Assembly (NCBI GenBank): GCA_012960805.1
Contig: DUAO01000010.1
Coordinates: forward strand, 1 to 40,906
Length of the DNA stretch: 40,906 nt
Direction of reading: 5' to 3'
Source: Flavobacteriales bacterium
Lineage (GTDB): Bacteria > Bacteroidota > Bacteroidia > Flavobacteriales > BACL11
Shown: positions 3,014 through 40,906 of the stretch, in pieces
Position numbering within the stretch: position 1 is the first letter of the stretch
How the letters are laid out: each line of letters opens with the position of its first letter
The notes under the pieces: generated by a model
The model's input: only the letters and a program-made list of their open reading frames with translations
The model's database searches: none
What the model was told of the DNA's origin: nothing
Made by a program: the position numbers and the translations under genes

Positions 3014-3087
3014 GCCGATATAGCTCAGTTGGCTAGAGCAGCTGATTTGTAATCAGCAGGTCGTGGGTTCGAGTCCCTCTATCGGCT
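3014..3087 (+). tRNA. tRNA-Thr (anticodon UGU)
   Basis: Hand-folded cloverleaf. Acceptor GCCGATA/TATCGGC, D-arm AGCTCAGTTGGCTAGAGC, anticodon stem GCTGA/TCAGC with loop TTTGTAA, T-arm GTGGGTTCGAGTCCCTC. 74 nt, no encoded CCA. Confidence 0.9.
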
Positions 3088-3097
3088 CTTATTTTAA

Positions 3098-3179
3098 GGG
3101 GGGATACTCAAGCGGTCAACGAGGGCAGACTGTAAATCTGCTGGCTACGCCTTCACAGGTTCGAATCCTGTTCCCCCCA
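3098..3179 (+). tRNA. tRNA-Tyr (anticodon GUA)
   Basis: Acceptor GGGGGGA/TCCCCCC, anticodon loop CTGTAAA, a long variable arm and T-arm ACAGGTTCGAATCCTGT. 82 nt, class II tRNA as expected for bacterial Tyr. Confidence 0.9.
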
Positions 3180-3196
3180 CATAAATTAATGAGATT

Positions 3197-3269
3197 GCGA
3201 GAGTAGCTCAGCTGGTAGAGCGTCAGCCTTCCAAGCTGAGGGTCGCGGGTTCGATTCCCGTCTCTCGCT
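3197..3269 (+). tRNA. tRNA-Gly (anticodon UCC)
   Basis: Acceptor GCGAGAG/CTCTCGC, anticodon stem TCAGC/GCTGA with loop CTTCCAA, T-loop GGTTCGATTCC. 73 nt. Confidence 0.9.
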
Positions 3270-3280
3270 CTTTATTTCTT

Positions 3281-3352
3281 GCCGGTGTAGCTCAGGGGTA
3301 GAGCGTTTCCTTGGTAAGGAAGAGGTCACGGGTTCAATTCCCGTCATTGGCT
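3281..3352 (+). tRNA. tRNA-Thr (anticodon GGU)
   Basis: Acceptor GCCGGTG/CATTGGC (two G-U pairs), anticodon stem TTTCC/GGAAG with loop TTGGTAA, T-loop GGTTCAATTCC. 72 nt. The Thr-Tyr-Gly-Thr-tuf order is the classic conserved arrangement. Confidence 0.85.
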
Positions 3353-3439
3353 CTAAACTAAAAGGAAAGAAAAAAGAAGTAGTAGTAAAATAAAAAGTAG
3401 AATTTATAACTAAATTATTAATAACTAAATTTAACAAAA

Positions 3440-17974: not shown

Positions 17975-19315
17975 CTAAAAAAGTTCCTTGCTAGAAGTTT
18001 TTAAAAAACCTACAAATCTATCGTATCTATCTCCTACAGCACGGTAGTACACATACATATAATAATCGTTACGGGTTTGGTAATGCGTTCCTTCAATAAA
18101 GGATACATCCACACGATTAGTGCTAATATCTTGCAGGGCATAATGGTAGTTGTAATAGCCTTGTTTTAAGTACACACTTCCCTCATATTGTCTTTTCTGC
18201 TTGTTATAGTGTAATTTGAAATCTTCTTTCAGTTCCCAATCAGAAAAGCCACCCAACAAATACAAATCACCATAACTGATATTATCCATAGGCAAAGTAA
18301 AATGCACAAAAGCATAGTCTGCTTCTATTGCTGAAATTCTCCCCTCTTGTGATTTAATCAGAAAATTACCGTTAATATCTGGCTCAATAGAATAGCGATC
18401 AAAAGAGCGTTTTCTATCATTGAATAAATAAACTTGGTTGTATGTGCTATCATAAGTAATATTTTTTATTCTTTCCGATTGATATCTTAAACTTTTAAAA
18501 TCAAAATGACGAAATTCATTGTTTCCCCAAAAGGTATTATCGTCCTCATAATCGTAAATCAACTCATCATTTTTAACAAATAGAGGCGTTAAATCAGTTA
18601 TTGCATTATCCTCTTTGTTGTTTTGCTTAATGGTAACTTTTATATCAGAAAACGGGTCACCCACCACTAAGTTAGGATGCTTAATTGTAAAGTCAATTTC
18701 GTGCTTGGTTGTACGGTCCTCTGCTAAGGTTGCACGCCTCACTTGAGCTTCAATTGTAAGTTTGGTTTCCAGTACCATAAAGCGTTTGTATGCAATAGCA
18801 CTTCCTCCTTCTTCAAATATTTTAAATACATAATTTCCGGAAAGCATAGGTTTTATTTCCTCTGTTGGGAATTCAAAACTATAATGCGTGTATTTTTGTA
18901 GAGTATTGAAAGAAAATTCATAATTTGTTATTGGCTCATCAGTAAAACCACTTATGTATTCTGATTGCATTAAATCGCTTGCCGTCCAGTCAGCATTACA
19001 ATGAATGATAGTGTAATAATAATCCTTAATGTCAGCTTCCAAATCATCAAAACTGATTAGTAATTGCTCTTCAGAGTTTAAATTGATTATTGACAGGGAA
19101 AGTTCTTCCTCTTTTTTATGGCAAAGCAGGGTTTTTATTTGTGTATTGAAGGTTCCATTTTTATAAATAATTGCAGGTTCAGCAATGGTTATTGCTTCTG
19201 TAATGTTGCTGTCTACTACTGAATTGTTAGTGCTTGTTATTTCTTTTGTGCTATGGCATGATGTTATAAAAACAATATAAATAATCAGTAGTATTAGAAA
19301 GTTGTTAAATCTCAT
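17975..19315 (-). CDS. DUF5103 family lipoprotein (family currently named type IX secretion system plug protein)
   Basis: 446 aa with a lipoprotein signal (FITSC). The block LISFDDLEADIKDYYYTIIHCNADWTASDLMQSEYISGF...SGNYVFKIF matches my recollection of DUF5103 family conservation. The assignment is by recognition, not computation. Confidence 0.55.
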   Translation of the reverse strand: MRFNNFLILLIIYIVFITSCHSTKEITSTNNSVVDSNITEAITIAEPAIIYKNGTFNTQIKTLLCHKKEEELSLSIINLNSEEQLLISFDDLEADIKDYYYTIIHCNADWTASDLMQSEYISGFTDEPITNYEFSFNTLQKYTHYSFEFPTEEIKPMLSGNYVFKIFEEGGSAIAYKRFMVLETKLTIEAQVRRATLAEDRTTKHEIDFTIKHPNLVVGDPFSDIKVTIKQNNKEDNAITDLTPLFVKNDELIYDYEDDNTFWGNNEFRHFDFKSLRYQSERIKNITYDSTYNQVYLFNDRKRSFDRYSIEPDINGNFLIKSQEGRISAIEADYAFVHFTLPMDNISYGDLYLLGGFSDWELKEDFKLHYNKQKRQYEGSVYLKQGYYNYHYALQDISTNRVDVSFIEGTHYQTRNDYYMYVYYRAVGDRYDRFVGFLKTSSKELF

Positions 19316-27353: not shown

Positions 27354-29594
27354 CTATTTAGCAATAGTAATCTTTTGTATGAAAGTTTCATCTCCTTTTG
27401 TGATGTTTATAAAGTAAACGCCACTACTTAAAGCAGTCACATCAATAGTGTTTTGGTAATCAGTAGTTAATACTGCTTTTCCAAATACATCATAAATAGT
27501 TGCTGAAGTATAATTTCCATCAATAACTAATCTATCTTTTACCGGGTTAGGGTATAAGTTAAAAGAGAATGTATTAGGTTCTTCAATTGAGTTAGTATTA
27601 CAAGCAGCATTACATGTTGCCAATGCACTATAGTTTCCTATTCCTGTTCCTGGGTCTACACAACCATTTACAGGGTCACAATCCCAAGAGTCAACAATAT
27701 TTATACTAGTTAATGCTGTTTTTCCTGCATTCAAAATTTCACCTGTCACTGCATTAATAATCATAACAACAGTATGTGCTTTAGTCCAATTAAAACCAAC
27801 ATCATTATACCCCGCTAATGAATTTGTACTTACATCAGTAAATATATGATTGTATATTCCCAGATTCACAGTTCCTGAAGGAAGACTTCCAGCATCTCCT
27901 AAAATATCATTATTAGAAAGCGATCTGGCAACATGATCATATCCTCCAAAACTTGCTGAAGGTACTGGGGATGCTGCAGTATTAAAACTAAAACCATTAT
28001 TTACATTAGCAGGGAAAGTCATATTAGTACTATTTCCTGAACCTCCAGGGCCATAATAGTTCTCTTGATCCCAACTAGAATTACTGCTTTGTAAGTCATC
28101 CTCAACAATAACACATGATAACCTGAAGTCACCAATTATATTACCGAAAAATTCAGCCTCAGTTGCAACACTTATTTTATTTGTTGATTGATCATAAACT
28201 GCAGTAATGCTATTTACAATACAAGGGACAATATCAGTTACTCTAGTAGCATGCATAGTTGAAAAATAAGCTGGGTTATCTTCCAAAACTCTATCCACTC
28301 CTCCTCCTGGATATCCTCCAGGAATATATGTGCCAATATTATCATCATATGCACTAATAGTCATTGGGTCGCCATTATGTACGGCTATTCCAATAAAACT
28401 TGATGTTGACTCCATTTCTCCTAAAGCAACAGCCCCTCTTGGACACCATCCGCACCAAGTTCCAGTTTTTTCTTCTCCCACTGTGGTTTTAGCAGGGATA
28501 GAGGTTAATCCTGCAATAGTAGTCGTTAAAGTGTTATTAGATGTGTCTAAATCAGCTGCATATTCTAACCATACAGTTAATGAATTTGCAGCAAGACTAT
28601 TTACAATAAGTTGTGCAGAATGTGTAAAGTTGTAAGTCCCATTCATTATAATATTTAAACCAGTTAAATTATCAGTATAAGTATTTGTCCCGTCTGACCA
28701 TTTAACATCAATACTAGTGATAAGATTTAATCCTCCATTTGTAATAGTGCCTTTAATATCAACATTAGTTGGATTTACAACATAGGCATCAATATCTAAT
28801 GCTGTTAGGATAGGATCATCAACAGGAGGGTCGCCTAATTCATATGAAAAGAGTGAAATCCCTTGGCTTATTCCAATCATTGAATTTGTACCTGTAACAA
28901 AATTATTACAGACAAATAATCCACCTGCAAGTCCACTAGATCCAGTTCCTAAGTCAGTAGTAGCGTCATGACTAATGCCTGTTGGAATACCTGTCATGCT
29001 TAATTGTATAATATCAGCACCATTTCCTCCCTGATCAAAAGCCCATAAATAAGGTCCACCCGTAGAATATCCATCATAAGCCATGCCGTAAATCGCACCA
29101 AGTCCGTGAGTTACTGAAGAGATTGTTGAAAGGGTTGCTCCGGTCATACTAACAGACAAAATATCTGAACCGTAAGCGCCTGTCCAAAATCCTCCATTTC
29201 CATTATCTAACGCAGGGTCAAAAGTTAAATATCGACAAGCAGGTACAGATGTATTTATTGTTGATACTAACGTTTTGGTAATTGGATCTACTTGATAAAT
29301 TGCAGCAGCAGCAGTACCGATATAAATATAGTTTCCATCAGTTGTCATGCTTCTAGTTCCTGTTATTCCTGAGATAGTGAAATTACCTGTCATGTTGCCT
29401 AAAGCGTCTGCAGTGTAAATGTTATTATCTGCCCACTTAGAAACCCAGAATTCAGATCCTGTCCACATAACTCCAGCTAATCCACTTGCAGGTGAAAATG
29501 AGACAATTGGATCAACATCCAATTGAACGTTCCATAATTGTGCTTGTGTTTGTAGCCCAAAAGCTACAAAAAGAACTAATAATAATTTTTTCAT
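27354..29594 (-). CDS. T9SS-sorted secreted protein with propeller-like N-terminal region and an Omp28-like/thioredoxin-like WCGWCP domain
   Basis: 746 aa. Signal peptide MKKLLLVLFVAFGLQTQAQ. C-terminal T9SS sorting domain (NLYPNPVKDRLVI...GVYFINI...IAK). An internal EEKTGTWCGWCPRGAVAL...IGIAVHNGDP segment (CxxC at nt 28440-28457) resembles the EEFTGxxCxxCP region I recall from Omp28-related proteins. Confidence 0.7.
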   Translation of the reverse strand: MKKLLLVLFVAFGLQTQAQLWNVQLDVDPIVSFSPASGLAGVMWTGSEFWVSKWADNNIYTADALGNMTGNFTISGITGTRSMTTDGNYIYIGTAAAAIYQVDPITKTLVSTINTSVPACRYLTFDPALDNGNGGFWTGAYGSDILSVSMTGATLSTISSVTHGLGAIYGMAYDGYSTGGPYLWAFDQGGNGADIIQLSMTGIPTGISHDATTDLGTGSSGLAGGLFVCNNFVTGTNSMIGISQGISLFSYELGDPPVDDPILTALDIDAYVVNPTNVDIKGTITNGGLNLITSIDVKWSDGTNTYTDNLTGLNIIMNGTYNFTHSAQLIVNSLAANSLTVWLEYAADLDTSNNTLTTTIAGLTSIPAKTTVGEEKTGTWCGWCPRGAVALGEMESTSSFIGIAVHNGDPMTISAYDDNIGTYIPGGYPGGGVDRVLEDNPAYFSTMHATRVTDIVPCIVNSITAVYDQSTNKISVATEAEFFGNIIGDFRLSCVIVEDDLQSSNSSWDQENYYGPGGSGNSTNMTFPANVNNGFSFNTAASPVPSASFGGYDHVARSLSNNDILGDAGSLPSGTVNLGIYNHIFTDVSTNSLAGYNDVGFNWTKAHTVVMIINAVTGEILNAGKTALTSINIVDSWDCDPVNGCVDPGTGIGNYSALATCNAACNTNSIEEPNTFSFNLYPNPVKDRLVIDGNYTSATIYDVFGKAVLTTDYQNTIDVTALSSGVYFINITKGDETFIQKITIAK

Positions 29595-29625
29595 AAATCG
29601 TTTTTTTTGAAATTAAATAATCATA

Positions 29626-29633
29626 CAAACTTA
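29626..29633 (-). promoter_or_regulatory. Candidate -7 box (TAAGTTTG) for the 27354-29594 gene
   Basis: The reverse complement of 29626-29633 is TAAGTTTG, about 30 nt upstream of the ATG at 29594. Confidence 0.35.
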
Positions 29634-29668
29634 CTAAAAAACCAATTAGTTTAATCATACATTATAAT

Positions 29669-29676
29669 TATGTTTG
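29669..29676 (+). promoter_or_regulatory. Candidate -7 box (TATGTTTG) for mazG
   Basis: It matches TAnnTTTG and lies 21 nt upstream of the mazG ATG. There is no clean -33 TTG. Confidence 0.35.
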
Positions 29677-29697
29677 CAATCTATCTAACATCATGTA

Positions 29698-30474
29698 ATG
29701 GAAAATAAAACAAAAGCATTTGCACGTTTACTTACAATTATGGATGAGCTTAGGGAACAATGTCCTTGGGATCAAAAACAAACTATGGATAGTTTACGCT
29801 ACTTAACTATTGAGGAGCTATATGAACTTTCAGACGCTATTTTAGAAAAGGACATGCCAGAAATTAAGAAAGAATTAGGAGATATCCTTTTGCATATTAT
29901 TTTTTATTCTCGTATTGCTTCTGAAACAAATGATTTTGATATTGCTGATGTTATAAATGATATTTGCGAAAAATTAATACACCGACATCCTCATATTTAT
30001 GGAGATGTTAAAGTAGCAGATGAGAAAGAGGTTAAGAAGAATTGGGAGAAATTAAAATTAAAAGAAGGCAGAAAATCTGTTCTAGAGGGAGTTCCAAAAT
30101 CATTACCTGCTATTGTGAAAGCTTTCAGAATACAAGAAAAAGTAAGAGGCATTGGTTTTGATTGGGATAATAAATCACAAGTTTGGGAAAAGGTATTGGA
30201 AGAAATTGAAGAGCTAAAAGTAGAAATGAAAAAGGGGGATAATGATAGAATAGAGTCAGAATTTGGAGATGTACTTTTTGCACTTACTAACTATGCTCGA
30301 TTTATTAATGTGAACCCTGAAGATGCTTTAGAGCGAACAAATAAGCGTTTTATTAAACGCTTCCAGATTATGGAAGAAATGATTACTAAAGATGGGTTAA
30401 GTCTTTCTGATATGAAACTTTCTGAAATGGATGTGTATTGGGAACAAGCAAAACATATATATAAAAAGGTATAG
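29698..30474 (+). CDS. mazG: Nucleoside triphosphate pyrophosphohydrolase MazG
   Basis: 258 aa with tandem MazG domains. Motifs include CPWDQKQT, EELYELSDAI, ELGDILLHI, HRHPHIYG and the second-domain EFGDVLFAL. Confidence 0.9.
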   Translation: MENKTKAFARLLTIMDELREQCPWDQKQTMDSLRYLTIEELYELSDAILEKDMPEIKKELGDILLHIIFYSRIASETNDFDIADVINDICEKLIHRHPHIYGDVKVADEKEVKKNWEKLKLKEGRKSVLEGVPKSLPAIVKAFRIQEKVRGIGFDWDNKSQVWEKVLEEIEELKVEMKKGDNDRIESEFGDVLFALTNYARFINVNPEDALERTNKRFIKRFQIMEEMITKDGLSLSDMKLSEMDVYWEQAKHIYKKV

Positions 30475-30537
30475 TTAATATATAAATGGATGCATATTAT
30501 TATCATTGCAACTTAATTTTTTTAAAAAAATCAAAAA

Positions 30538-32112
30538 ATGAAACAAACACTAATTACCTTTACAATTCTTACTTCAGTATTATTTGTAAATGCACAAAGT
30601 TTTAACGGATTTGCACTTTATAATGCTCAAGGGTCAAATACAACCTATTTAATTGATGAAAATCAAAATATTGCTCATACTTGGAATATGAGCACTGAAT
30701 GTAACTATACTGTAGCTCTAAAAGAAAATGGAAATTTAATAAGAGGTACTAAAGGGAATACGAGTTTATTTAGCACTGGAAATATTGCCGCTGGAGGAGG
30801 TATGGTTCAAGAAATTGCTCCAGATGGGACTATAGTGTGGGAATATATTTATGCAAATAGCGACCATATAAGTCACCATGATCTAACATTAGTTGGTGAT
30901 AATGTTTTACTTACTGCTTATGAAAAGAAGACTTCTTCCGAGTTAAATGATGCTGGATTTAATAATGCAAGTTCTGAAAAATGGCCAACTCATTTTGTTG
31001 AGTTAGCACCTGATGGTAATGGAGGAGCTACAATTGTTTGGGAGTGGTATATTTGGGATCATATGTGTCAAGATACTGATCCTAATGGACCTAATTACAT
31101 TTCAAATATTGCAGACAGTCCTGAACTTATTGATATAAATATGATACAAAGTCAAGGAGGTCCAGGTGGAGGTGATTGGTTTCATGTAAATGGTGTCGAT
31201 TATAATGAGGATTTAGATCAAATTGTTTTCTCATCTCGTTTTGCATCTGAAATTTATATAATTGATCATTCTACAACAACTGCTGAGGCCGCTACTCACT
31301 CAGGAGGAAATTCTGGAATGGGTGGTGATATATTATACAGATGGGGAAATCCTTCAAATTACGGTATGTCAGGATCTCAAATTATTGATAATGCTGTGCA
31401 TGATGCCAGGTGGATTACTGATGATGGAAGACCAAACGGAGGATATCTACAAATTTTTAATAATAGTGGAGTAAGTAGTACTGTATCTGCAATAGATGGT
31501 ATTGAAACTCCTTTAGATCCTGCTACTGGATATACTTATTTAAGAACTTCTGGGCAAGCTTTCGGTCCTGCTTCATATACAACTAGATATGAATGTGCTT
31601 ATTCATCCTCTGGTCAATCAGCTTCTGATAGAATGTCAAACGGAAACTTATATGTGAATGCTTCTGGAGGGCAAGGAGGTGCAGGAGTAATGTATGAGGT
31701 AGATGAAAATGGGGCTGTAGTATGGGGACCTTATAATGCTCAATCTCAAAAAGGATTCAGGTATGAATGTGATTATCCTGGTATTATAGCACTTGAGCTA
31801 TTTATAAATACTGCAACAACATCTTGTTTTACAGCAACCGCTATAAATGATGTTGATGATAATGTAATTTCAATATTTCCTAATCCAACAAACGGATCAA
31901 TTAATATAGTAATAAACCAATCTATAAGTAGAATTAATGAAATTAGTATTTTTAATATTTTAGGTCAACCTGTGTATAATAAATCTATTAATGAGGCGGG
32001 TGAGATGGTGTTAAAAGTAGATTTGAGTGAATATTCAGAAGGAATATATATTCTTAATTTGTTTCATAATACTGGAAAAATAGATGCTAGACGAATATCG
32101 TATATTAAGTAA
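30538..32112 (+). CDS. Secreted arylsulfotransferase (ASST)-like beta-propeller protein with T9SS C-terminal domain
   Basis: 524 aa. Signal peptide ...LFVNAQS. The blocks SHHDLTLVGDNVLL, WEWYIWDH and DWFHVNGVDYNEDLDQIVFSSRFASEIYIIDH resemble the ASST family as I recall it. The T9SS CTD is IFPNPTNGSINI...GIYILNL.... The family call needs an HMM check. Confidence 0.5.
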   Translation: MKQTLITFTILTSVLFVNAQSFNGFALYNAQGSNTTYLIDENQNIAHTWNMSTECNYTVALKENGNLIRGTKGNTSLFSTGNIAAGGGMVQEIAPDGTIVWEYIYANSDHISHHDLTLVGDNVLLTAYEKKTSSELNDAGFNNASSEKWPTHFVELAPDGNGGATIVWEWYIWDHMCQDTDPNGPNYISNIADSPELIDINMIQSQGGPGGGDWFHVNGVDYNEDLDQIVFSSRFASEIYIIDHSTTTAEAATHSGGNSGMGGDILYRWGNPSNYGMSGSQIIDNAVHDARWITDDGRPNGGYLQIFNNSGVSSTVSAIDGIETPLDPATGYTYLRTSGQAFGPASYTTRYECAYSSSGQSASDRMSNGNLYVNASGGQGGAGVMYEVDENGAVVWGPYNAQSQKGFRYECDYPGIIALELFINTATTSCFTATAINDVDDNVISIFPNPTNGSINIVINQSISRINEISIFNILGQPVYNKSINEAGEMVLKVDLSEYSEGIYILNLFHNTGKIDARRISYIK

Positions 32113-32117
32113 ATATA

Positions 32118-34382
32118 ATGTTGTTAAAACGACTTCCTATTTGTATACTTTTATTATTGTTTTTTCATATTTCATTTTCACAAAATAGTTTTTATGATAC
32201 TGATAGTGTAAGAGAAATACGTATTAGTTTTTATAATACAAATTGGGATTATCTTTTAGATAGTCTGTATGTACAAGGTGATAACGATAGAATTTTAGCT
32301 GATATTGAAATAGATGGAGATTCCTATGATAGCGTTGGGATCCGTTATAAAGGGTTTAGTTCTGTTAGTGTAAATCGTCTAAAAAACCCCTTCAATATTA
32401 AGTTAGATTACATAATTGAAGGACAAGACCATCAAGGCGTAGACAAACTTAAACTTTCTAATGTTATTCAGGATCCTTCCTTTATCCGAGAGGTGTTGTC
32501 TTATGAAGTATGTCGTAAATACATGCCATCATCTCAGGCAAATTATGCAAATATCTTCATTAACGATACCCTTTGGGGTTTATACACAAATGTTGAAACA
32601 GTAAACAAAAGTTTCCTGATTGATCATTTTGATAGTAAGTATAATTCATTTTTTAAATGTAATCCTGAAAATTTAAATGTTCAAATTGGTGGAGAAAATG
32701 CTAACTTAAGCAACACTCATGGAACTGACAGTAGCGACTATTATCCATTTTATGCTCTAAAATCTGATTATGGATGGGAAGATTTATACAATCTGATTGA
32801 CACATTAAATAATGTTTCAGACAGCATTCATCACGTCTTAAATGTGGATAGAACCTTATGGATGCATGCTTTAAATTATTCAATGATAAATTTTGATTCT
32901 TATATAGGATATGGACAAAATTACTATTTATACAAAGATCAGGCAAATCAGTGGAATCCAATAATTTGGGATTTAAATATGTCGTTTGGAGGCTTTAAAT
33001 TAACAGATGCTTCACAACAATATTTTAATGGTTTTGATATTACTCAAGCTCAGAATATGGATCCTCTCACACATTATTATCATACTTCCCAGCCTCCTTT
33101 TAATACTTTGAGACCATTGTTAAAAAATTTATTTTCTTCTGAGAGAAATAGAAAAATGTATTTGGCACATATGCGAACAATAATGGAAGAGAATTTTGTT
33201 AATCAGGATTATTTTGTAAGGGGGCAAGCCTTACAGAATTTGATTGATCAGGATGTGCAAAATGATACTAATAAATTTTATACTTATTCTGATTTTATAA
33301 CAAACCTTACAAGTCAAGTTTCATTAGTGGCATCAATTTGTCCTGGTATTGCTCAATTAATGGATAGTCGCTCAACTTATTTAAGTTCATATTTAGGATA
33401 TTCAGGTGAACCTATAATTTCAAATATCGCTTATACTCCTCAAAATTTCATTTTAGGTGATGACATATGGATAACAGCAGAAGTGATAGACGCAACTTTT
33501 GCAAAAGTAGCTTACCGATTTGGAAAAAATGAACGATTTAAATCAGTAGAAATGCATGATGATGGTAACCATAATGACGGCACATCAGGTGATGGAATTT
33601 ATGGATGTAAAATAAGTAATTGCAGTAATTCATTAGATTACTATTTATATGCTGATAATGATTCTGCTGGAGTTTTCTCCCCAGCAAGAGCTGCTTATCA
33701 GTACTATACTATTCAAACTACTATTCAACCAGGAGATTTAGTTATAAATGAAGTTATGTCTAATAATATAAGTACAGTAACTGATAATAGCGGAAAATAT
33801 GAAGATTGGATTGAACTATATAATACAACCTCCTCTCCAATTTCAACAAATGGTTTGTTTATAACAGACACGCTTGCTTATCTTCACAAATGGAATTTAC
33901 CTAATCATATTATCCCACCTAATTCTTATTCTATTATTTGGGCTGATGAGGACGGAAACCAAGGAGAGGAGCATTCAAATTTTCAATTGTCTAATTTAGG
34001 AGAATCACTTATTTTATCTAATTCTGATAGTTCAGTTATTGATTCTATAACTTTTCTTCCTCAATTAGATGATATAGCTTTTGGAAGAAGCCCTAATGGT
34101 ATTGGATCTTTTACTATGCTAACACCAACCTTTAAAGCGAATAATGATTTCCCCAATTTAATTGATGAGATAAGTGAGAAAGTAATAATTTATCCTAATC
34201 CTTTTACTGATGTTTTATATTTGGAAAAGAAAGAGAAAATTGAAGTTAGGGATTTATTAGGTAAAATCATTTATAGCGCAGCAAGTGCAAATCGAATACA
34301 AACATCAGATTGGGATTCAGGGGTTTATTTCATATCTTTGAAAGATAAAAGACAGACTATAAAAGTTATTAAAATTAAATAG
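32118..34382 (+). CDS. CotH kinase-fold protein + lamin tail domain + T9SS C-terminal domain (paralog 1)
   Basis: 754 aa with a signal peptide. CotH blocks: KNPFNIKLDY, LKLSNVIQDPSFIREVLSYEVCRKYMP, ANIFINDTLWGLYTNVE and NYYLYKD...IIWDLNMSFG. LTD block: LVINEVMSNN...YEDWIELYN...SNFQLSNLGESLIL. CTD: IIYPNPFTDVLYL...GVYFISL. Confidence 0.85.
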   Translation: MLLKRLPICILLLLFFHISFSQNSFYDTDSVREIRISFYNTNWDYLLDSLYVQGDNDRILADIEIDGDSYDSVGIRYKGFSSVSVNRLKNPFNIKLDYIIEGQDHQGVDKLKLSNVIQDPSFIREVLSYEVCRKYMPSSQANYANIFINDTLWGLYTNVETVNKSFLIDHFDSKYNSFFKCNPENLNVQIGGENANLSNTHGTDSSDYYPFYALKSDYGWEDLYNLIDTLNNVSDSIHHVLNVDRTLWMHALNYSMINFDSYIGYGQNYYLYKDQANQWNPIIWDLNMSFGGFKLTDASQQYFNGFDITQAQNMDPLTHYYHTSQPPFNTLRPLLKNLFSSERNRKMYLAHMRTIMEENFVNQDYFVRGQALQNLIDQDVQNDTNKFYTYSDFITNLTSQVSLVASICPGIAQLMDSRSTYLSSYLGYSGEPIISNIAYTPQNFILGDDIWITAEVIDATFAKVAYRFGKNERFKSVEMHDDGNHNDGTSGDGIYGCKISNCSNSLDYYLYADNDSAGVFSPARAAYQYYTIQTTIQPGDLVINEVMSNNISTVTDNSGKYEDWIELYNTTSSPISTNGLFITDTLAYLHKWNLPNHIIPPNSYSIIWADEDGNQGEEHSNFQLSNLGESLILSNSDSSVIDSITFLPQLDDIAFGRSPNGIGSFTMLTPTFKANNDFPNLIDEISEKVIIYPNPFTDVLYLEKKEKIEVRDLLGKIIYSAASANRIQTSDWDSGVYFISLKDKRQTIKVIKIK

Positions 34383-34384
34383 AT

Positions 34385-35620
34385 ATGAAAAAGGTTTTAC
34401 TAATAATAATGTGCTTTATTGCAATGCAATTAGGCGCTCAAACTATTACAAACTACACTACAGCAGATGGTCTTGTTGATAATTTTGTAGAATGTATTGA
34501 TATAGATGTTAACGATAGTCTTTGGATTGGAACTTCTGTTGGTGTTCAAATGTTTAGTGGATCTTCAGGAACAGTTTATGATATGGTAAATTATCCTGGA
34601 ATGCTATCAGATAATATTAAAGTTATTAGCGGCACTTCTACTGGAGATATATGGATTGGTACAGATTATGGTGCAAGTAAATTGACAGCTGGTTTTAGCG
34701 GGATGTTTTGGCTATCTTATACAACTACAGATGGACTTATCAGTAACCAAGTAAAAAGTATTGATGAGGATGTAAATGGAGGAATATGGATTGGAACCAA
34801 CCAAGGCGTTTCTTATTTTGACGGTAATTCTTGGATATCTTATTCCTCTCCTGATTTGCATTGGAGTGGGGTGAATGCTATAGCTTTTGACTTAAATGGA
34901 GATAAGTGGTTTGCTTCACCACTAGGGGGTGTTACTCATTTTGATGGTGCAACTTTTACTAATTACGATACCTCAAATGGATTACTTTCACAAAATGTGA
35001 CCGCTTTACTTATAGATAATCAAGATAACAAGTGGATTGGAACAGACCTTGGAATGTCTGTTCTTAATGCTTCAAATTCATCTTTTATTGATTATATAGA
35101 GATGTATCCCCTTCCACCACCTCATGATTCTATAAACCCTGTAGTAGATATTGCAATGGATTCATACGGAAGAATATGGACTGCTATATATGTAGGATAT
35201 TTAGCAGAAGGCGGGATAGCAATGTGGGATGGTAATCAGTGGTTTGATTTTGATGTAAGTGATGGATTAATTGGACCAAATGTAAGAGGGTTAGCAATTG
35301 ATTCCCAAGACAATGTATGGGTAGCAACTAGTGCTGGGGTTTCTAAAATATCTTCTATTCCAAGTACAGTAAGTAATATTTCAAACTCTGTTGTTGAGGT
35401 GTATCCAAATCCAACTTTAGGTAAGGTTTATATTAATACTCAATCTGAAAACTTTAATACTATTGCTGTGTACAATAATATTGGTTCACTTGTTTATTCT
35501 GAAAACCTTAAGTGTCAACAAAAAATAGAGATAGATTTCTCATCTCTTACAAAAGGCCTTTACCACATTAACTTACATTCTGATAAAGGTGTTGAAAATC
35601 ATAAACTTCTTATTAAGTAG
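34385..35620 (+). CDS. Secreted 7-bladed two-component-regulator-propeller (Reg_prop) repeat protein with T9SS C-terminal domain
   Basis: 411 aa with a signal peptide. Seven repeats of the W[IVF]GT..G type are present (WIGTSVGV, WIGTDYGA, WIGTNQGV, WFASPLGGV, WIGTDLGM, WTAIYVGY, WVATSAGV). They are interleaved with T..dGL.sN.V motifs. CTD: VYPNPTLGKVYI...GLYHINL. Confidence 0.75.
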   Translation: MKKVLLIIMCFIAMQLGAQTITNYTTADGLVDNFVECIDIDVNDSLWIGTSVGVQMFSGSSGTVYDMVNYPGMLSDNIKVISGTSTGDIWIGTDYGASKLTAGFSGMFWLSYTTTDGLISNQVKSIDEDVNGGIWIGTNQGVSYFDGNSWISYSSPDLHWSGVNAIAFDLNGDKWFASPLGGVTHFDGATFTNYDTSNGLLSQNVTALLIDNQDNKWIGTDLGMSVLNASNSSFIDYIEMYPLPPPHDSINPVVDIAMDSYGRIWTAIYVGYLAEGGIAMWDGNQWFDFDVSDGLIGPNVRGLAIDSQDNVWVATSAGVSKISSIPSTVSNISNSVVEVYPNPTLGKVYINTQSENFNTIAVYNNIGSLVYSENLKCQQKIEIDFSSLTKGLYHINLHSDKGVENHKLLIK

Positions 35621-35658
35621 ATTTCTTTTTATTTTTTAACTTTACAAAAAAATATTTT

Positions 35659-37866
35659 ATGAAAAAAGTAGTGCTTATTTTAGGGTTGTTGTTTTTTACT
35701 TTTACTTCATTTAGTCAAGATGTTTTTGATGTTGGAATACGAAATATTGAAATCTTTTTTTCAGAACCAAATTGGGATGATACTCTAGATTTGTATTATG
35801 CCAATGATTTAGGTCAACGATTAATAGCTGACTCTGTTTTAATAGATGGTATAGCCGATCAAGATGTTGGAATAAAATATAAAGGCAATAGTTCATATAA
35901 TATTAATAATGTCAAAAATCCTTTAAATATTAGGTTGAATTATGTTAATAATGGTCAGTCAATTGATGGTTATAATGTGTTAAAATTATCAAATGGATTT
36001 AAGGATCCTACTTTAGTACGAGAAGTGTTGAGTTATGAAATTGCAAGAGAATACATGCCTTCTTCAAAGGCTACTTATGCTAATGTTTATATAAATGGGA
36101 ATTGGAATGGTATATATACTTGTATTCAATCAGTTGATGATGATTTTACAAATGAACATTTTTATGAGCGTAAAGGTCCTTTTTTTAAAGCTGATAATAC
36201 AAATATAATAGTTAGCGGTTGCCCTCCTGGGCCATTAGGAATATTAAGTTATTACACAGATACTAATTGTTACCAAAGAGCATATGAAATTCAATCCACT
36301 AATGATTGGACACAACTAGGTAATTTTCTAGATACATTAAACAATCATTTTACTGAGATTGAAACTGTCATGGATATTGATAGAGCACTTTGGATGATGG
36401 CTTTTGAGAATTTAACAGTATGCTTAGATGGCCCTATAAATGCAATTCCTCATAATTATTATTTATTTAAAGATAATAATGGGAGATTCAGTCCAATCAT
36501 TTGGGATATGAATCAAGCTTTTGGAACATTTACAAATGGGTTGCCAACTCCAGTAACAAATCAAAGCTTGCAGCAATTAGATGCTTTTTATGGAAGTACA
36601 AATAATCAAAATATTTTAACTAGCCAAATCTTTTCATCAGACCAATATAAGAGAATGTATATAGCGCACATGCGGACAATTATTAATGAGTATTTTTCTA
36701 ATAATCAGTATCATACTCGTGCATTACAATTACAACAATTGATTGACGCTTCAGTTGCAGCTGACCCAAATTTATTTTTTCCTTACGCAACTTTTCAAAC
36801 CAATCTCAATTCAACAATAGGTAATAATATTGGTTTAACAGAATTAATGGATGCTAGAGTTGCTTATTTACAAGGGTTAAGTGAATTTACAGCATCACCT
36901 CCATCTATCACAAATTTAAGCTCAAATCCAACAGCTGTTTTACCCCATAGTACTGTGAGTATTACTGCTGCTATTAGTAATACAAATTATGCTTATTTAG
37001 GATATCGATTTAAGTTTTCTGATAAGTTTGAAAAAATAGAAATGTATGATGATGGCTTGAATGGTGATGGTACTGCTGGAGATGGTATTTTTGGTGCAAC
37101 AATAAATATTGATGCTCGTGATGTTCAGTATTACATTTATGCTGAAAATACTAATGCCGGAATTTTCTCTCCTGAAAGAGCTGAAAAAGAATTTCACCAA
37201 TTAGTAGTAGTAAGTGGTTTGGTGATTAATGAAGTTATGGCAGCTAATTTTTCAGCAGTTGCTGATCAAAGTGGGGAGTTTGATGATTGGGTAGAATTGT
37301 ATAATGGTAATAATTTTAGCCTGAATCTTAATGGATATTATTTGTCTGACAGTGAGAATGATTTAACAAAATGGACATTCCCTAATGTTACTATTCCCGC
37401 TAATGACTATCTAATTATTTGGTGTGATACTGCTGGAGGTACTCAATCCGGATTACATACCACTTATCGCCTTTCAGCAGATCAAGAGGAAGTCTATTTA
37501 ACAGCCCCAACAGGAATTGTTATTGATGCCGTACATTATGTAAATATGCCAACTGATATGGGCTATGCTCGTGTGCCGAATGGAACAGGACCTATGCAAT
37601 ATCAAACACAAACTTATGATGATAATAACCAAAATGGAACAGGAATTGCTAATATAAATGTAAGTGGTAAAATGAGAGTATATCCTAATCCTAGTAATAA
37701 CAGAATCTATATATTGGGAGCAACTGAAAGTATAGCTATTTTTAATATGATGGGGCAAAAAGTATATACTGAAAATCAAATAAATTCTGTGGATATTACC
37801 AGTTGGGAAAATGGAATTTACTTTGTAAAATCAGGAAATAGTGTTGTTAAAATTTTAAAACAATAA
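35659..37866 (+). CDS. CotH kinase-fold protein + lamin tail domain + T9SS C-terminal domain (paralog 2)
   Basis: 735 aa with the same architecture as 32118-34382. Shared blocks include KNPLNIRLNY, LKLSNGFKDPTLVREVLSYEIAREYMP, HNYYLFKD...IIWDMNQAFG, LVINEVMAANF...FDDWVELYN and CTD VYPNPSNNRIYI...GIYFVKS. The two paralogs are clearly diverged, judged by eye. Confidence 0.85.
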   Translation: MKKVVLILGLLFFTFTSFSQDVFDVGIRNIEIFFSEPNWDDTLDLYYANDLGQRLIADSVLIDGIADQDVGIKYKGNSSYNINNVKNPLNIRLNYVNNGQSIDGYNVLKLSNGFKDPTLVREVLSYEIAREYMPSSKATYANVYINGNWNGIYTCIQSVDDDFTNEHFYERKGPFFKADNTNIIVSGCPPGPLGILSYYTDTNCYQRAYEIQSTNDWTQLGNFLDTLNNHFTEIETVMDIDRALWMMAFENLTVCLDGPINAIPHNYYLFKDNNGRFSPIIWDMNQAFGTFTNGLPTPVTNQSLQQLDAFYGSTNNQNILTSQIFSSDQYKRMYIAHMRTIINEYFSNNQYHTRALQLQQLIDASVAADPNLFFPYATFQTNLNSTIGNNIGLTELMDARVAYLQGLSEFTASPPSITNLSSNPTAVLPHSTVSITAAISNTNYAYLGYRFKFSDKFEKIEMYDDGLNGDGTAGDGIFGATINIDARDVQYYIYAENTNAGIFSPERAEKEFHQLVVVSGLVINEVMAANFSAVADQSGEFDDWVELYNGNNFSLNLNGYYLSDSENDLTKWTFPNVTIPANDYLIIWCDTAGGTQSGLHTTYRLSADQEEVYLTAPTGIVIDAVHYVNMPTDMGYARVPNGTGPMQYQTQTYDDNNQNGTGIANINVSGKMRVYPNPSNNRIYILGATESIAIFNMMGQKVYTENQINSVDITSWENGIYFVKSGNSVVKILKQ

Positions 37867-37868
37867 TT

Positions 37869-38285
37869 ATGAAAAAAATAGTTCTATTTTTAAGTCTTCT
37901 TATTAGTTTTTCCTCTTGCGAAAAAGAGGCTGGCGAAGGAGGTACTTCAGTAATTGAAGGGCAAGTATATAAAATACATACTTTTCAAAATTTCACAACA
38001 GGAGTATGGGATACTTTGTACTATCAATTGGATGCAGGAAAAGATGTGTACATTATTTATTCTGATAACCAAAGTGATGTATATGATGATAAATTTGAAA
38101 CTGATTATAATGGAATATACCGTTTTGAATATTTAAGAAAAGGAGATTATACTATCTATACTTATGCAGATAGCATTGATATGAATAATGTAAATTATGA
38201 TTATCCAATTTTCAAACACATCAAGATTAACTCAAATAATTCTGATAATAGTGTTGAAGACTTTGTAATTGAGAAAAATCAATAA
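37869..38285 (+). CDS. Small lipoprotein of unknown function (possible CarboxypepD_reg-like beta-sandwich)
   Basis: 138 aa with lipobox SFSSC. The pattern VIEGQVY...TDYNGIYRFEYLRKGDYTIYTY resembles carboxypeptidase-regulatory-like domains. It starts 2 nt after the CotH-2 stop. Confidence 0.55.
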   Translation: MKKIVLFLSLLISFSSCEKEAGEGGTSVIEGQVYKIHTFQNFTTGVWDTLYYQLDAGKDVYIIYSDNQSDVYDDKFETDYNGIYRFEYLRKGDYTIYTYADSIDMNNVNYDYPIFKHIKINSNNSDNSVEDFVIEKNQ

Positions 38286-39035
38286 GTGAATAGTCTACCT
38301 GCAATAATATCTGATTTCACTCCAATATCTTTAGGTGAAATGGATGACGTGAAATTAATGAGCCGTACAGATACTAAATTTGCTTTTCAAACAAATAAAT
38401 TGCCATTTCTTCTCAAAAGATTAATACCTTTTTATCGTGTTTTAGCCATTGATGGAAAGTTAATACATGATTACAAATCACTTTATTATGATACAGAGGA
38501 AAGAAAATTCTATATCGACCATCATAATAGTAGAGTAAACAGAAACAAAATCAGATTCCGAGAATATGTGGGGAGTGGACTGACTTTTTTGGAAATAAAA
38601 CGAAAAAACAACAAAGGGAAAACCATTAAAAAAAGAATGAAAGTAGATGCTATTACTAAAGAACTTTCAGAAAAACATAAAAAATATATTAAAAAAATCA
38701 TTGGAAAAAAGCTAGTAGTAAATGCTAAACAATGGATTAATTTTAGTCGCATTACTTTGGTGCATAAAACTCAGAAAGAGCGATTAACTATTGATATAAA
38801 TCTTACATTTGAAAATGAAAAATTAAGTGGAGAGTTAAAACAAATTATTATAGCTGAGGTTAAGCAAGAAAAAATGAGCAGGTCTTCTGATTTTATGAAA
38901 ATTGCAAAAGAAATGAGTATCTTGCCAATCCGATTAAGCAAGTATTGTATAACAACATTACAGCTTAATCCTGATGTTAAACAAAATAGATTTAAAGAAA
39001 AATTATTATTTATTAATAAATTAAAACAAGCATAA
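38286..39035 (+). CDS. VTC domain (polyphosphate polymerase-like, triphosphate-tunnel fold) protein, GTG start
   Basis: 249 aa with no signal peptide. Blocks FTPISLGEMDDVKLMSRTDTKFAF, YKSLYYDTEERKFY, NKIRFREY, FLEIKRKNNKGKTIKKR and IIAEVKQE match bacterial VTC-domain proteins. The conserved N-terminal block precedes the first ATG, so the GTG at 38286 is the likely start. Confidence 0.8.
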   Translation: MNSLPAIISDFTPISLGEMDDVKLMSRTDTKFAFQTNKLPFLLKRLIPFYRVLAIDGKLIHDYKSLYYDTEERKFYIDHHNSRVNRNKIRFREYVGSGLTFLEIKRKNNKGKTIKKRMKVDAITKELSEKHKKYIKKIIGKKLVVNAKQWINFSRITLVHKTQKERLTIDINLTFENEKLSGELKQIIIAEVKQEKMSRSSDFMKIAKEMSILPIRLSKYCITTLQLNPDVKQNRFKEKLLFINKLKQA

Positions 39036-39676
39036 TGGAATTATTACTTATTCTACTAGATAGCATTGAGTTTTTAGGCACTCCACTTTTTGATTCTGAG
39101 GATTTTTTGAAACTTATTGTTAAGACGGTTTTCAATTTAATAATTATTACTGTAATTATAAGATATATCTATTATCCTGTAACAAAGAACAAGGACTATT
39201 TATTTACTTATTTTCTTATTAGTATGACAGTTTTCTTGCTTTGCGTGCTTTTAGATAGTGTAAAATTACAATTAGGATTTGCACTTGGACTTTTTGCAAT
39301 ATTTGGTATTATTCGTTACCGAACCGATCCCATTGCTATTAAGGAAATGACTTATTTATTTTTAGTGATTGGAATTTCAGTTGTTAATGCACTTTCAAAT
39401 AAAAAGATTAGTTATGCTGAGCTTGTGTTTGCTAATCTTATGATTGTTTTTCTTACCTATGGAATGGAAAAAATATGGTTATTAAGACATCAAAGCAGAA
39501 AAAACATTACATATGAAAAAATTGAATTAATAGTACCAGAAAAGCGAGAAGAATTAATAGCTGATTTAAAAGCAAGAACAGGTATAGATGTTATTCGTGT
39601 TGAAATTAGAAGAATTGACTTTTTAAGAGATACGGCTAACTTGCGAATTTTCTATTATGAGGAAGATTCTGAATAA
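39035..39676 (+). CDS. DUF4956 domain-containing inner-membrane protein
   Basis: 213 aa with about 5 predicted TM helices. The conserved core is LGFALGLFAIFGIIRYRTDPIAIKEMTYLF. The soluble C-terminal tail is about 70 aa. Its ATG overlaps the VTC stop (TAATG). Confidence 0.75.
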   Translation: MELLLILLDSIEFLGTPLFDSEDFLKLIVKTVFNLIIITVIIRYIYYPVTKNKDYLFTYFLISMTVFLLCVLLDSVKLQLGFALGLFAIFGIIRYRTDPIAIKEMTYLFLVIGISVVNALSNKKISYAELVFANLMIVFLTYGMEKIWLLRHQSRKNITYEKIELIVPEKREELIADLKARTGIDVIRVEIRRIDFLRDTANLRIFYYEEDSE

Positions 39677-40301
39677 ATTCATTCTAATTTTCATTTTACC
39701 AATTTCTGTTTTTTCTCAAGAAAATGATTTCCAAACTTGGGCTTCTATTTCGGCAAGTAAAAAGATAATAAAGAAAACAAATCTGACCATAAAACAAGGT
39801 GTTCGCTTTAGAGAAAATTCGTCTCTTTATTCTAAGCTTTTTACAGATTTAAAAATCAAAAGCAAATACAATAAACATTTCAGCTTTGCTATTGGTTATC
39901 GCTTTTCTAATGATTGGAATAAGCAATTGGAGTTAAGCCAAAAAAACAGATTTTATTCTGACATTTACTATAAAGACAAATACAAAAAAAGGTTTTTGTT
40001 TGATGCGCGAGCCAGATTGCAAACACAAGGAAATATAGAAGAGTATGCTGCTACATTTAGGCATAAATCAGCATTGGCTTACAATATTCCAAAAACAAAA
40101 TTGGAGCCATCAGTTGCTTTGGAATATTTCCTGCCTTTTGAAAATATGCTAATAGATAAATTGCGTTATACAATTGGACTTTCTCATCCCATTACAAAAG
40201 ATTTGGATGCTGAAATAGCATATAGAATTCAACAAGAGTTTTATACCAATAATCCGCAAACTCTTTTTATCTTTGAAGGAAAATTAGCTTACGATTTTTA
40301 A
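39657..40301 (+). CDS. DUF2490 domain-containing predicted outer-membrane beta-barrel protein
   Basis: 214 aa. Signal peptide ...PISVFSQ, then ENDFQTW. The sequence shows alternating amphipathic strand patterns and ends in a terminal aromatic residue (LAYDF), as in OMP beta-signals. It overlaps DUF4956 by 20 nt. Confidence 0.65.
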   Translation: MRKILNKFILIFILPISVFSQENDFQTWASISASKKIIKKTNLTIKQGVRFRENSSLYSKLFTDLKIKSKYNKHFSFAIGYRFSNDWNKQLELSQKNRFYSDIYYKDKYKKRFLFDARARLQTQGNIEEYAATFRHKSALAYNIPKTKLEPSVALEYFLPFENMLIDKLRYTIGLSHPITKDLDAEIAYRIQQEFYTNNPQTLFIFEGKLAYDF

Positions 40302-40307
40302 AATATT

Positions 40308-40796
40308 ATGAAAGAAAAGAAAATTGAACTCTCATTTATTTCAGCAGAATTAAGCGAACTCAGTACGCAGGAGAAGCAATTAGTTGCCAATGCAAAATCA
40401 GCAGTTACTACTGCTTATGCTCCATATTCAGGTTTTTTGGTTGGCGCAAGTGTATTACTAGATAATGGAGAAATTATAAATGGATCCAATCAGGAAAATG
40501 TTGCATATCCTTCAGGGCTTTGCGCGGAAAGGGTAGCACTCTTTTATGCTGGAGCACGCTTTCCGGATGCAAAAATAAAAACAATTGCCGTATCAGTTAT
40601 GTCTAAAAACTTTAAGGTAACGGATGTTATTTCTCCTTGTGGTGCATGTAGGCAAGTAATGGCAGAATATGAGGATAAGCAAGAACAAGCAATAAAAGTA
40701 ATTTTACACTCCCCAACGGATCAGGTTCTTATTGCAAATACTGTTGAGTCTTTGCTGCCATTTATGTTTAAAAGCCCTTTACTAAAGCAGCACTAG
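40308..40796 (+). CDS. cdd: Cytidine deaminase
   Basis: 162 aa with zinc-binding/catalytic motifs CAERVAL and SPCGACRQVM. Confidence 0.88.
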   Translation: MKEKKIELSFISAELSELSTQEKQLVANAKSAVTTAYAPYSGFLVGASVLLDNGEIINGSNQENVAYPSGLCAERVALFYAGARFPDAKIKTIAVSVMSKNFKVTDVISPCGACRQVMAEYEDKQEQAIKVILHSPTDQVLIANTVESLLPFMFKSPLLKQH

Positions 40797-40814
40797 TTTC
40801 CTTATATTTACCGC

Positions 40815-40906
40815 ATGGATATTTTAGATACTCCTATTGATTTTTTGAAGGGGGTTGGTCCGGCTAGGGCTGACTTGCTAAAAAAAGAGTTGCGTATTTT
40901 TACCTA
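40815..40906 (+). CDS. recG: ATP-dependent DNA helicase RecG, N-terminal 30 codons (3' end lies outside the window)
   Basis: MDILDTPIDFLKGVGPARADLLKKELRIFT matches the conserved Bacteroidota RecG N-terminus (..L.GVGP.RA.LL.KEL.I.T). Only a short fragment is visible. Confidence 0.55.
   Translation, partial: MDILDTPIDFLKGVGPARADLLKKELRIFT

Follow-up and report, generated by a model that had tools for sequence, protein, structure and literature searches.

A CotH, VTC, DUF4956 and DUF2490 gene cluster in a Flavobacteriales chromosome: a possible trans-envelope phospho-polymer module with exported cargo

A contig of 40,906 nucleotides (nt) from a Flavobacteriales bacterium (GenBank assembly GCA_012960805.1, contig DUAO01000010.1), referred to as a whole as the window, carries a cluster of eight co-directional open reading frames (ORFs) on the plus strand at 30538-40301. 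It combines two CotH kinase-like proteins and two further cargo proteins of the type IX secretion system (T9SS) with a lipoprotein, a VTC-domain protein, a DUF4956 membrane protein and a DUF2490 barrel. The cluster genes are probably a conserved, co-translated unit. The locus is tentatively read, with a probability of about 0.4, as a conserved trans-envelope polyphosphate (polyP) or phospho-polymer module serving surface enzymes, in the version that belongs to diderms (Bacteroidota, T9SS).

Organization of the cluster

The genes follow one another at distances of 5, 2, 38, 2, 0, -1 and -20 nt and encode the following products, with lengths in amino acids (aa):

30538-32112, plus strand: ASST-like cargo, 524 aa; signal peptide, propeller at residues 26-248, type A C-terminal sorting domain (CTD) at 446-515
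32118-34382, plus strand: CotH paralogue 1, 754 aa; signal peptide, CotH (5.3e-38), choice-of-anchor-X motif, LTD (5.3e-14), CTD (1.8e-10)
34385-35620, plus strand: Reg_prop propeller cargo, 411 aa; signal peptide, Reg_prop (3e-18), CTD (4.8e-13)
35659-37866, plus strand: CotH paralogue 2, 735 aa; signal peptide, CotH (4.1e-41), LTD (8.6e-16), CTD (1.5e-09)
37869-38285, plus strand: lipoprotein, 138 aa; lipobox ...SFSSC, one transthyretin / CarboxypepD_reg-like beta-sandwich
38286-39035, plus strand, GTG start: VTC-domain (triphosphate tunnel) protein, 249 aa; Pfam VTC (8.2e-20), predicted cytoplasmic, signal sequence absent
39035-39676, plus strand: DUF4956 protein, 213 aa; Pfam match 9.9e-55, start overlapping the VTC stop by 1 nt
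39657-40301, plus strand: DUF2490 barrel, 214 aa; Pfam DUF2490 (5.2e-23), overlapping DUF4956 by 20 nt

The close spacing of genes (2, 0, -1 and -20 nt) is suggestive of translation as one unit. Stop/start overlaps extend from the lipoprotein gene to the DUF2490 gene, and VTC and DUF4956 are apparently translationally coupled. A preliminary description of this DNA had counted nine genes. The actual number is eight, which is also the sum of its own seven distances and of its division into the first four and the last four products. The distances themselves were reproduced from the ORF coordinates. No terminator had been seen inside the string, and a consensus scan of 29000-40906 agrees, yielding seven terminator-like sites, every one on the minus strand and none on the plus strand. 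The domain calls made earlier were all borne out by Pfam matches above the gathering score.

The compartments of the products line up, with a cytoplasmic VTC, an inner-membrane DUF4956, an outer-membrane lipoprotein and barrel, and T9SS-exported cargo. This compartment logic came out as proposed. The complementary locations of the last four products were recovered as a lipobox, a signal-less VTC, a five-helix DUF4956 and a signal with terminal Phe in DUF2490. The four cargo proteins (both CotH, ASST-like and Reg_prop) all match PF18962 and TIGR04183, the type A CTD, and signal-like N-termini were found by inspection of the translations in these four and in DUF2490; the combination of signal peptide and sorting domain had been assigned to the first four products before, correctly. 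The 524-aa protein matches Pfam Arylsulfotrans (1.6e-11) and Por_Secre_tail (2.4e-12). The organism possesses a T9SS, since the window also encodes a plug protein (17975-19315) and further CTD cargo.

The VTC and CotH proteins

By sequence comparison, both enzyme types have kept their catalytic residues. The VTC domain (PF09359) scores 71.8 bits against a cut-off of 23, and relatives carry the NCBI name 'polyphosphate polymerase domain-containing protein'. Searched against the Protein Data Bank (PDB), the single sequence returned noise alone. A family profile was required for matches and found the crystal structures of Vtc2 (3g3o, 2.7e-05) and Vtc4 (3g3q, 1.4e-04). An alignment of 60 relatives has 21 invariant positions. 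Among them, K31, R90, R92, K105, E191, S218 and K219 align with Vtc4 K200, R264, R266, K281, E426, S457 and K458, respectively; the offset of the Vtc4 numbering was verified, and the last aligned segment scores weakly while its motifs match exactly. These Vtc4 residues are all reportedly required for polymerase activity, as Hothorn and co-workers are said to have found in 2009. Strand 1 reads R-x-D-x-K in the window protein and R-Q-T-T-K in Vtc4. Its aspartate (D29), two residues ahead of the strand-1 lysine, is near-invariant in the bacterial members and is Thr in Vtc4.

The CotH domains (PF08757) score 131.8 and 142 bits, with a cut-off of 23.8. The two CotH proteins share 37% identity over their full length and are old paralogues. 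Paralogue 2, the copy retained in the five-gene core of relatives, matches Bacillus cereus CotH (5jd9) at 7.6e-07 in phmmer. Its D257 and D283 align with D224 and D247 of the 5jd9 chain, which lie 23 residues apart as in B. subtilis, and are equivalents of the catalytic and metal-binding aspartates D228 and D251 of B. subtilis. Both persist in 95% or more of 32 linked homologues, and the full collection of CotH domains has them in 127 of 130. Paralogue 1 retains both equivalents in the motifs FDSY and WDLN.

The inner- and outer-membrane proteins

The AlphaFold2 model of DUF4956 has five helices, followed by a beta-alpha-beta-beta (ACT-like) C-terminal domain, at a predicted local distance difference test score (pLDDT) of 65. 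Faint ACT-domain-like Foldseek matches were obtained with the last 60 residues. R43, R94, T97 and D199 are invariant, together with several more residues in or around the predicted helices. Membership of DUF4956 in the MgtC family was proposed in a study of Streptococcus intermedius (PMC12345266). A 40-sequence profile aligned with Escherichia coli YhiD at an hhalign probability of 0.14%, a weak test with a single-sequence template, so that the relationship was not supported; an MgtC match was also absent from a Pfam scan of DUF4956 at E <= 0.01.

The lipobox cysteine of the lipoprotein (Cys17) is shared by 90% or more of 30 homologues. The 138-aa protein itself has no Pfam match above the gathering score, and 23 of the 30 homologues show sub-threshold CarboxypepD_reg, fn3_3 or SdrD_B matches.

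DUF2490 (PF10677; transport classification 1.B.81) scores 82.2 bits against a cut-off of 29.8, and the protein has a signal peptide and the C-terminus ...YDF. The family has been classed as a putative porin family (PMC4827864). The AlphaFold2 model is a small beta-barrel (pLDDT 85, predicted template modelling score 0.75) with 11 strands in DSSP. The best TM-scores were obtained with the 12-strand barrels KdgM, NanC and EspP (an autotransporter beta-domain), at about 0.5-0.6 to KdgM. In 32 diverse homologues, 12 columns of the predicted lumen are at least 70% Lys/Arg and 3 are acidic, the lumen being assigned heuristically from model strands and alternating hydrophobic/polar residues. An interior compatible with polyanion binding is suggested by the model. 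Likeness to the acidic-oligosaccharide porins KdgM and NanC (and the idea of phosphate-selective OprP/OprO) lies in a similar size and in conserved basic residues predicted to point inward, with no significant E-value by either sequence or Foldseek comparison.

Conservation viewed from VTC

At E <= 0.001, the VTC family has 3612 representatives of clusters formed at 50% identity. Relatives of the window protein occur in at least 584 species genomes. The best 80 loci, mostly from Flavobacteriales and other Bacteroidota, were analysed and annotated with iterated hidden Markov models built from the window proteins. DUF4956 adjoins VTC in 80 of 81 loci, and the two are a near-obligate pair. The lipoprotein and DUF2490 are each present in 43 of the 81, CotH in about 25-28.

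Fifty VTC loci have enough flank for a full comparison. VTC and DUF4956 stand alone in 21, are joined by lipoprotein and DUF2490 without CotH in 9, and belong to the full set in 17; 3 loci are odd. Lipoprotein and DUF2490 occur together in 26 of the 50, one or the other alone in 1 each, and neither in 22. CotH without DUF2490 was a single case. The accessory layers are nested: the pair, then lipoprotein and DUF2490, then CotH, then the ASST-like and propeller cargo. Homologues of the ASST-like N-terminal domain were detected in 16 of 97 loci and those of the Reg_prop N-terminal domain in 10, with CotH present in all 16 and all 10.

The eight-gene form is repeated in six loci (L002, L007, L011, L013, L014, L016), and a nine-gene form with an additional M43 peptidase cargo was found in L089; all of these have two CotH genes. 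A relative with 80% VTC identity has a five-gene core at the same site, in the order mazG, CotH, small protein, VTC, DUF4956, DUF2490, cdd. Another, with 37% VTC identity and a different chromosomal context, has the order ASST-like, CTD protein, CotH, two small proteins, VTC, DUF4956, DUF2490. The arrangement is beyond chance, because the gene order recurs in dozens of genomes, one of them at 37% VTC identity and elsewhere in the chromosome.

Outside Bacteroidota, VTC and DUF4956 are adjacent on large plasmids of Deinococcus, Aminobacter and Shinella (three lineages, two further phyla). Acid phosphatase and phnDCE lie near the Deinococcus pair. In Aminobacter (L087:7409-9721) and Shinella (L088:7397-9723), the order is DUF4956, VTC and an 'esterase-like activity of phytase family protein'. 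In these Alphaproteobacteria, an exported phospho-enzyme (phytase-like esterase) replaces CotH beside the pair. When plasmids were searched with the CotH domain by tblastn, three weak Firmicutes matches came up, none on records with VTC matches in the same collection.

Some single loci deserve mention. Extra lipoprotein-DUF2490 copies occur in L059 (5079-9504, on the opposite strand beside several propeller and CTD genes) and in L079 (15590-16600), which points to the outer-membrane pair as a unit able to duplicate independently of VTC. DUF4956 was not called beside the VTC gene of L095 (1925-2683), which is followed by UPRTase after a gap of 233 nt, and was not detected in L072 either; exceptions of this kind are rare. 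Stand-alone VTC-DUF4956 pairs of Flavobacteriales are found convergent to ispF (YgbB) and to porV and porU (Peptidase_C25, about 1280 aa), with porP/sprF just beyond (L019, L029, L034, L038, L044, L057, L058 and L082-L085, e.g. L082:9141-16257). This neighbourhood could be plain synteny or could hint at a T9SS connection even without CotH. Bacteroidota-like pairs (46-48% VTC identity) are present in bins labelled Methanoperedens, Heimdallarchaeota, Comamonadaceae and Arenicella (L054, L056, L060, L045), and the protein P0337 is labelled Euryarchaeota although porV and porU lie on its contig. These odd taxon labels are likely due to bin contamination. The near-identical 200-kb contigs L089 and L090 share a sample of origin. 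One of the two has fragmented copies of both CotH genes, the propeller gene, recG and others, which looks like assembly or long-read frameshift errors, not pseudogenes.

Conservation viewed from CotH

Eighty loci were obtained from a metagenome scan with the CotH domain as anchor. Within the clade of at least 64% CotH identity, lipoprotein and VTC follow directly after CotH in all 20 loci with at least 1.5 kb downstream. More distant linked cases are arranged in various ways: divergent in L150, with VTC straight after CotH in L151, 3 kb apart in L154 and with a gap between lipoprotein and VTC in L176. L092 is likewise among the distant lineages with a CotH-VTC association in a different arrangement. 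Such variety argues for repeated association over a single inherited block. The link between CotH and VTC is real yet facultative in both directions. CotH genes of 41-48% identity that are unlinked to VTC have the same architecture of CotH, LTD and CTD. Stand-alone CotH genes were repeatedly found beside Lcl_C-domain proteins (L134:12211-13503, L135:8201-9760, L160:12656-14248), two of them with a T9SS CTD; in L135 a LytTR two-component system then follows. The Lcl_C-domain proteins are thus candidates for a partner or substrate of the unlinked CotH kinases.

Relation to known systems

The combination of CotH, VTC and DUF4956 is known from Gram-positive bacteria. Genes for cotH, 'poly-phosphate polymerase', DUF4956 and DUF4832 are contiguous beside pel operons of streptococci, clostridia and bifidobacteria (Whitfield 2020, PMC7112168). 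NELoc-2 of Clostridium perfringens contains VTC, a membrane protein annotated 'tubulin/FtsZ' and CotH (PMC2879425). For S. intermedius, SIR_1594 was modelled as a secreted CotH with an FN3 domain (preprint; mBio 2025, PMC12345266), SIR_1593 as a cytoplasmic Vtc4-like tunnel enzyme and SIR_1592 as a protein with four transmembrane helices plus an ACT domain at its C-terminus (PMC12345266). Deletion of SIR_1592 or SIR_1594 lowered aggregation by over half in sputum medium and altered Pel levels (PMC12345266).

The pel-type trio resembles the window in its three contiguous, co-directional families, in the secretion signal of CotH, in a cytoplasmic VTC-like protein with intact tunnel residues and in a DUF4956 protein with transmembrane helices and an ACT-like domain. 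In the window, a lipoprotein gene sits between CotH and VTC, giving the order CotH-lipoprotein-VTC-DUF4956. The CotH of the pel trio ends in an Ig-like (FN3) domain, whereas that of the window has LTD followed by a T9SS CTD. The pel trio lies directly downstream of pelDEADAFG, usually with a DUF4832 hydrolase; the window has mazG, cdd, nqr, ApbE and rpoBC as neighbours, and no pel-like or DUF4832 genes were found in the window or the related loci examined. Further additions in the window are the outer-membrane lipoprotein, DUF2490, a duplicated CotH, the ASST-like and Reg_prop cargo, and T9SS export. The outer-membrane parts are missing from the Gram-positive trio, as expected for cells with no outer membrane.

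According to the S. intermedius study, the trio did not turn up anywhere but in pel loci (PMC12345266). Its occurrence elsewhere corrects this statement and separates the function of the trio from the Pel polysaccharide. The preliminary description had held that no system of this composition was characterised. That part falls, as the trio was described in 2020 and 2025 and mutants exist; the diderm/T9SS form and the independence from pel are new. New in the present locus are thus the Bacteroidota/T9SS form, the two outer-membrane additions and the duplicated CotH with ASST-like/propeller cargo, besides the wide occurrence in marine Flavobacteriales and the pel independence that contradicts the published statement.

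The eukaryotic VTC complex shares with the window the Pfam VTC domain, counterparts of the invariant catalytic residues and an obligate membrane partner. Such a tie of VTC to a membrane protein is in keeping with synthesis coupled to translocation out of the cytoplasm. The eukaryotic protein has SPX and fused transmembrane helices, whereas the 249-aa protein is a VTC domain alone, a separate tunnel domain without SPX and without a fused three-helix Vtc1-type transmembrane domain. The membrane partner differs as well, being DUF4956 with five helices and an ACT-like domain here and a three-helix DUF202-type domain in eukaryotes. Bacillus CotH (5jd9/5jda) has the same Pfam domain, both catalytic aspartates and the surrounding motifs. 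It acts in the mother cell, where adenosine triphosphate (ATP) is available, with the coat proteins CotB and CotG as substrates; the CotH proteins of the window are exported, are about twice as long and carry additional LTD and T9SS sorting domains.

Proposed mechanism and alternative explanations

In the proposed module, the VTC protein would polymerise polyP from cytoplasmic nucleotide. It would pass the chain to DUF4956 for inner-membrane crossing, by analogy with Vtc4 and its own transmembrane channel. Lipoprotein and DUF2490 would bring the polyanion as far as the outer membrane or across it. The surface CotH enzymes would act with or on the polymer, either using it as phosphoryl donor or phosphorylating or polyphosphorylating polymer-binding components of the surface or matrix. 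The likely output would be an altered cell surface or matrix (adhesion, aggregation), an outcome to which the Gram-positive homologues point. A trans-envelope module is favoured as the reading that accounts for most of the observations, namely the compartments, the gene overlaps, the nested layers, the Gram-positive versions without outer-membrane parts and the replacement of CotH in Alphaproteobacteria. A narrower version, in which a dedicated trans-envelope polyP synthase-exporter supplies the phosphoryl donor (or a covalently transferred group) for extracellular CotH kinases, is improbable. It is weakened by the silent VTC deletion in S. intermedius, by the many unlinked CotH genes and by the lack of donor-site differences, all of which are set out below.

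Several observations weigh against the trans-envelope module. In the CotH set of 41-48% identity, VTC lies downstream in 1 of 30 loci and within 4 kb on either side in 2 of 21. Twenty-one of the 50 VTC-anchored loci have no CotH, no lipoprotein and no DUF2490. The co-conservation of CotH with VTC, DUF4956 and DUF2490, for which a neighbourhood census had been proposed earlier, stands, far above chance, for the close clade (20 of 20), as well as for the distant recurrences, and does not extend to these two groups. The co-occurrence counts ignore phylogeny, with no correction for kinship. CotH-less VTC-DUF4956 pairs lie amid housekeeping genes (LpxK, GatB, PurT, RecG) or beside porV-porU. A comparison of positions found no residues that separate VTC-linked from unlinked CotH domains, and thus no sign of a changed phosphoryl-donor site. 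Foldseek searches with the low-confidence DUF4956 model gave no channel or other match at E <= 0.001, and those with the DUF2490 model gave generic barrel matches, none with E <= 1e-3. According to a 2026 preprint, DUF2490 is an outer-membrane barrel with a complete buried charge (salt-bridge) network in 238 of 2,789 modelled members; the barrel here may thus be closed instead of forming a pore. Deletion of the VTC-like SIR_1593 had no evident effect (PMC12345266). Set against the phenotypes of the CotH and DUF4956 mutants, this speaks against a simple chain in which VTC feeds CotH. The authors of that study favour cytoplasmic polyP and a role in phosphate metabolism (PMC12345266). Apart from the two pel papers, a literature search found no characterisation of any VTC-domain or DUF4956 protein from bacteria, and no functional study linking CotH and polyP or reporting polyP export to, or use by, CotH.

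One alternative, considered rather unlikely, is a cytoplasmic phosphate-homeostasis unit with co-regulated surface proteins. Here, VTC would make or trim polyP or hydrolyse triphosphate, and DUF4956 would be an anchor or a sensor whose ACT-like domain binds a ligand. Lipoprotein and DUF2490 would import a phosphorus compound, and the T9SS cargo would be clustered by a common signal such as phosphate supply. The frequent occurrence of VTC-DUF4956 alone amid housekeeping genes agrees with such a role, as do the phosphorus-acquisition genes near the pair in other lineages (phnDCE, acid phosphatase, phytase-like, purple acid phosphatase), the weak ACT-like structural matches of the DUF4956 C-terminal domain and the role proposed for S. 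intermedius (PMC12345266). Co-regulation alone hardly yields the strict nesting, in which CotH occurs almost only with the outer-membrane parts. The stop/start overlaps from lipoprotein to DUF2490, the secreted CotH of the Gram-positive trio and the lack of similarity between the DUF4956 profile and MgtC-family YhiD also speak against it.

Ordinary T9SS surface proteins could instead have landed beside VTC-DUF4956-DUF2490 in one Flavobacteriales lineage and have been inherited there without functional coupling. The 20 loci found from CotH that have VTC downstream all fall within a single clade, which keeps the same mazG...cdd site, and the 41-48% group is almost never linked; the co-occurrence tests are uncorrected for phylogeny. 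This explanation is doubtful in view of the block at 37% VTC identity in another chromosomal context, the divergent, direct and spaced arrangements in the distant CotH lineages L150, L151, L154 and L176, the trio next to pel operons in Bacillota and Actinomycetota, and the gaps of 2, 0, -1 and -20 nt that point to one translation unit.

A role in nucleotide metabolism is very improbable. VTC would then be a triphosphate tunnel hydrolase acting on nucleoside triphosphates (NTPs) or triphosphate as a partner of mazG (NTP pyrophosphohydrolase) and cdd, unrelated to polyP. The tunnel-enzyme superfamily takes in triphosphatases and cyclases. Both mazG and cdd are co-directional with the cluster at gaps of 63 and 6 nt, cdd adjoins VTC-DUF4956 in 37 of 81 loci, and D29, near-invariant in the bacterial members, is Thr in Vtc4. 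Yet many loci lack cdd and the others have it in one orientation or the other, the obligate partner of VTC is a membrane protein rather than a nucleotide enzyme, the residues match Vtc4, and the Pfam VTC match exceeds the gathering score.

If the trans-envelope module is real, it would add to PPK1 and PPK2 a second bacterial polyP route, one of eukaryotic VTC type, with the polymer placed outside the cytoplasm. It would also offer an answer to the phosphoryl supply of surface-displayed kinase-fold enzymes where ATP is absent. The module is common in marine Flavobacteriales, with a VTC relative in >584 species genomes and a CotH relative on hundreds of metagenome contigs. Particle-attached bacteria of the ocean would therefore be concerned if the module acts in surface chemistry, aggregation or phosphorus handling.

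Flanking genes and further observations in the window

The features around the cluster are:

17975-19315, minus strand: T9SS plug protein (T9SS_plug_1st), flanked by an aldehyde dehydrogenase gene and by the nqr operon
29669, upstream of mazG: Bacteroidota -7-like TAnnTTTG motif, from a motif search
29698-30474, plus strand: mazG (NF007113, 4.8e-99), 63 nt before the first cluster gene
40308-40796, plus strand: cdd, cytidine deaminase (TIGR01354 / NF004064), beginning 6 nt past DUF2490

Both flanking genes had been named in the preliminary description and were found as described. Its reading of the cluster as an accessory insertion was not sustained. Relatives with a 65-80% identical VTC hold the module at the same mazG...cdd site, with mazG in the same position in L001, L004, L005, L009 and others, and the window is core chromosome. 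A foreign island was ruled out by this synteny; the GC content is just slightly lower over the last 2 kb (0.27-0.28). The remainder of the window comprises a tRNA cluster, tuf, rpoBC, aldehyde dehydrogenase, the T9SS plug protein, nqrA-F, ApbE and another CTD protein.

The gene cdd may be co-transcribed with the cluster. Sigma-70 and Bacteroidota TAnnTTTG promoter motifs occurred in counts equal to chance, so that transcript starts cannot be placed; the single well-sited motif is the one upstream of mazG. Rfam and tRNA scans gave no match within the cluster. A XerC/D-type tyrosine recombinase gene (1708-2577, plus strand) lies just upstream of the tRNA-Thr/Tyr/Gly/Thr cluster (3014-3353) and tuf and is probably a housekeeping gene, not part of a mobile element. 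Directly upstream of mazG, a 746-aa protein (27354-29594, minus strand) has a T9SS CTD and no further Pfam domain, and the gene at the equivalent position in L001 has an Omp28 domain.

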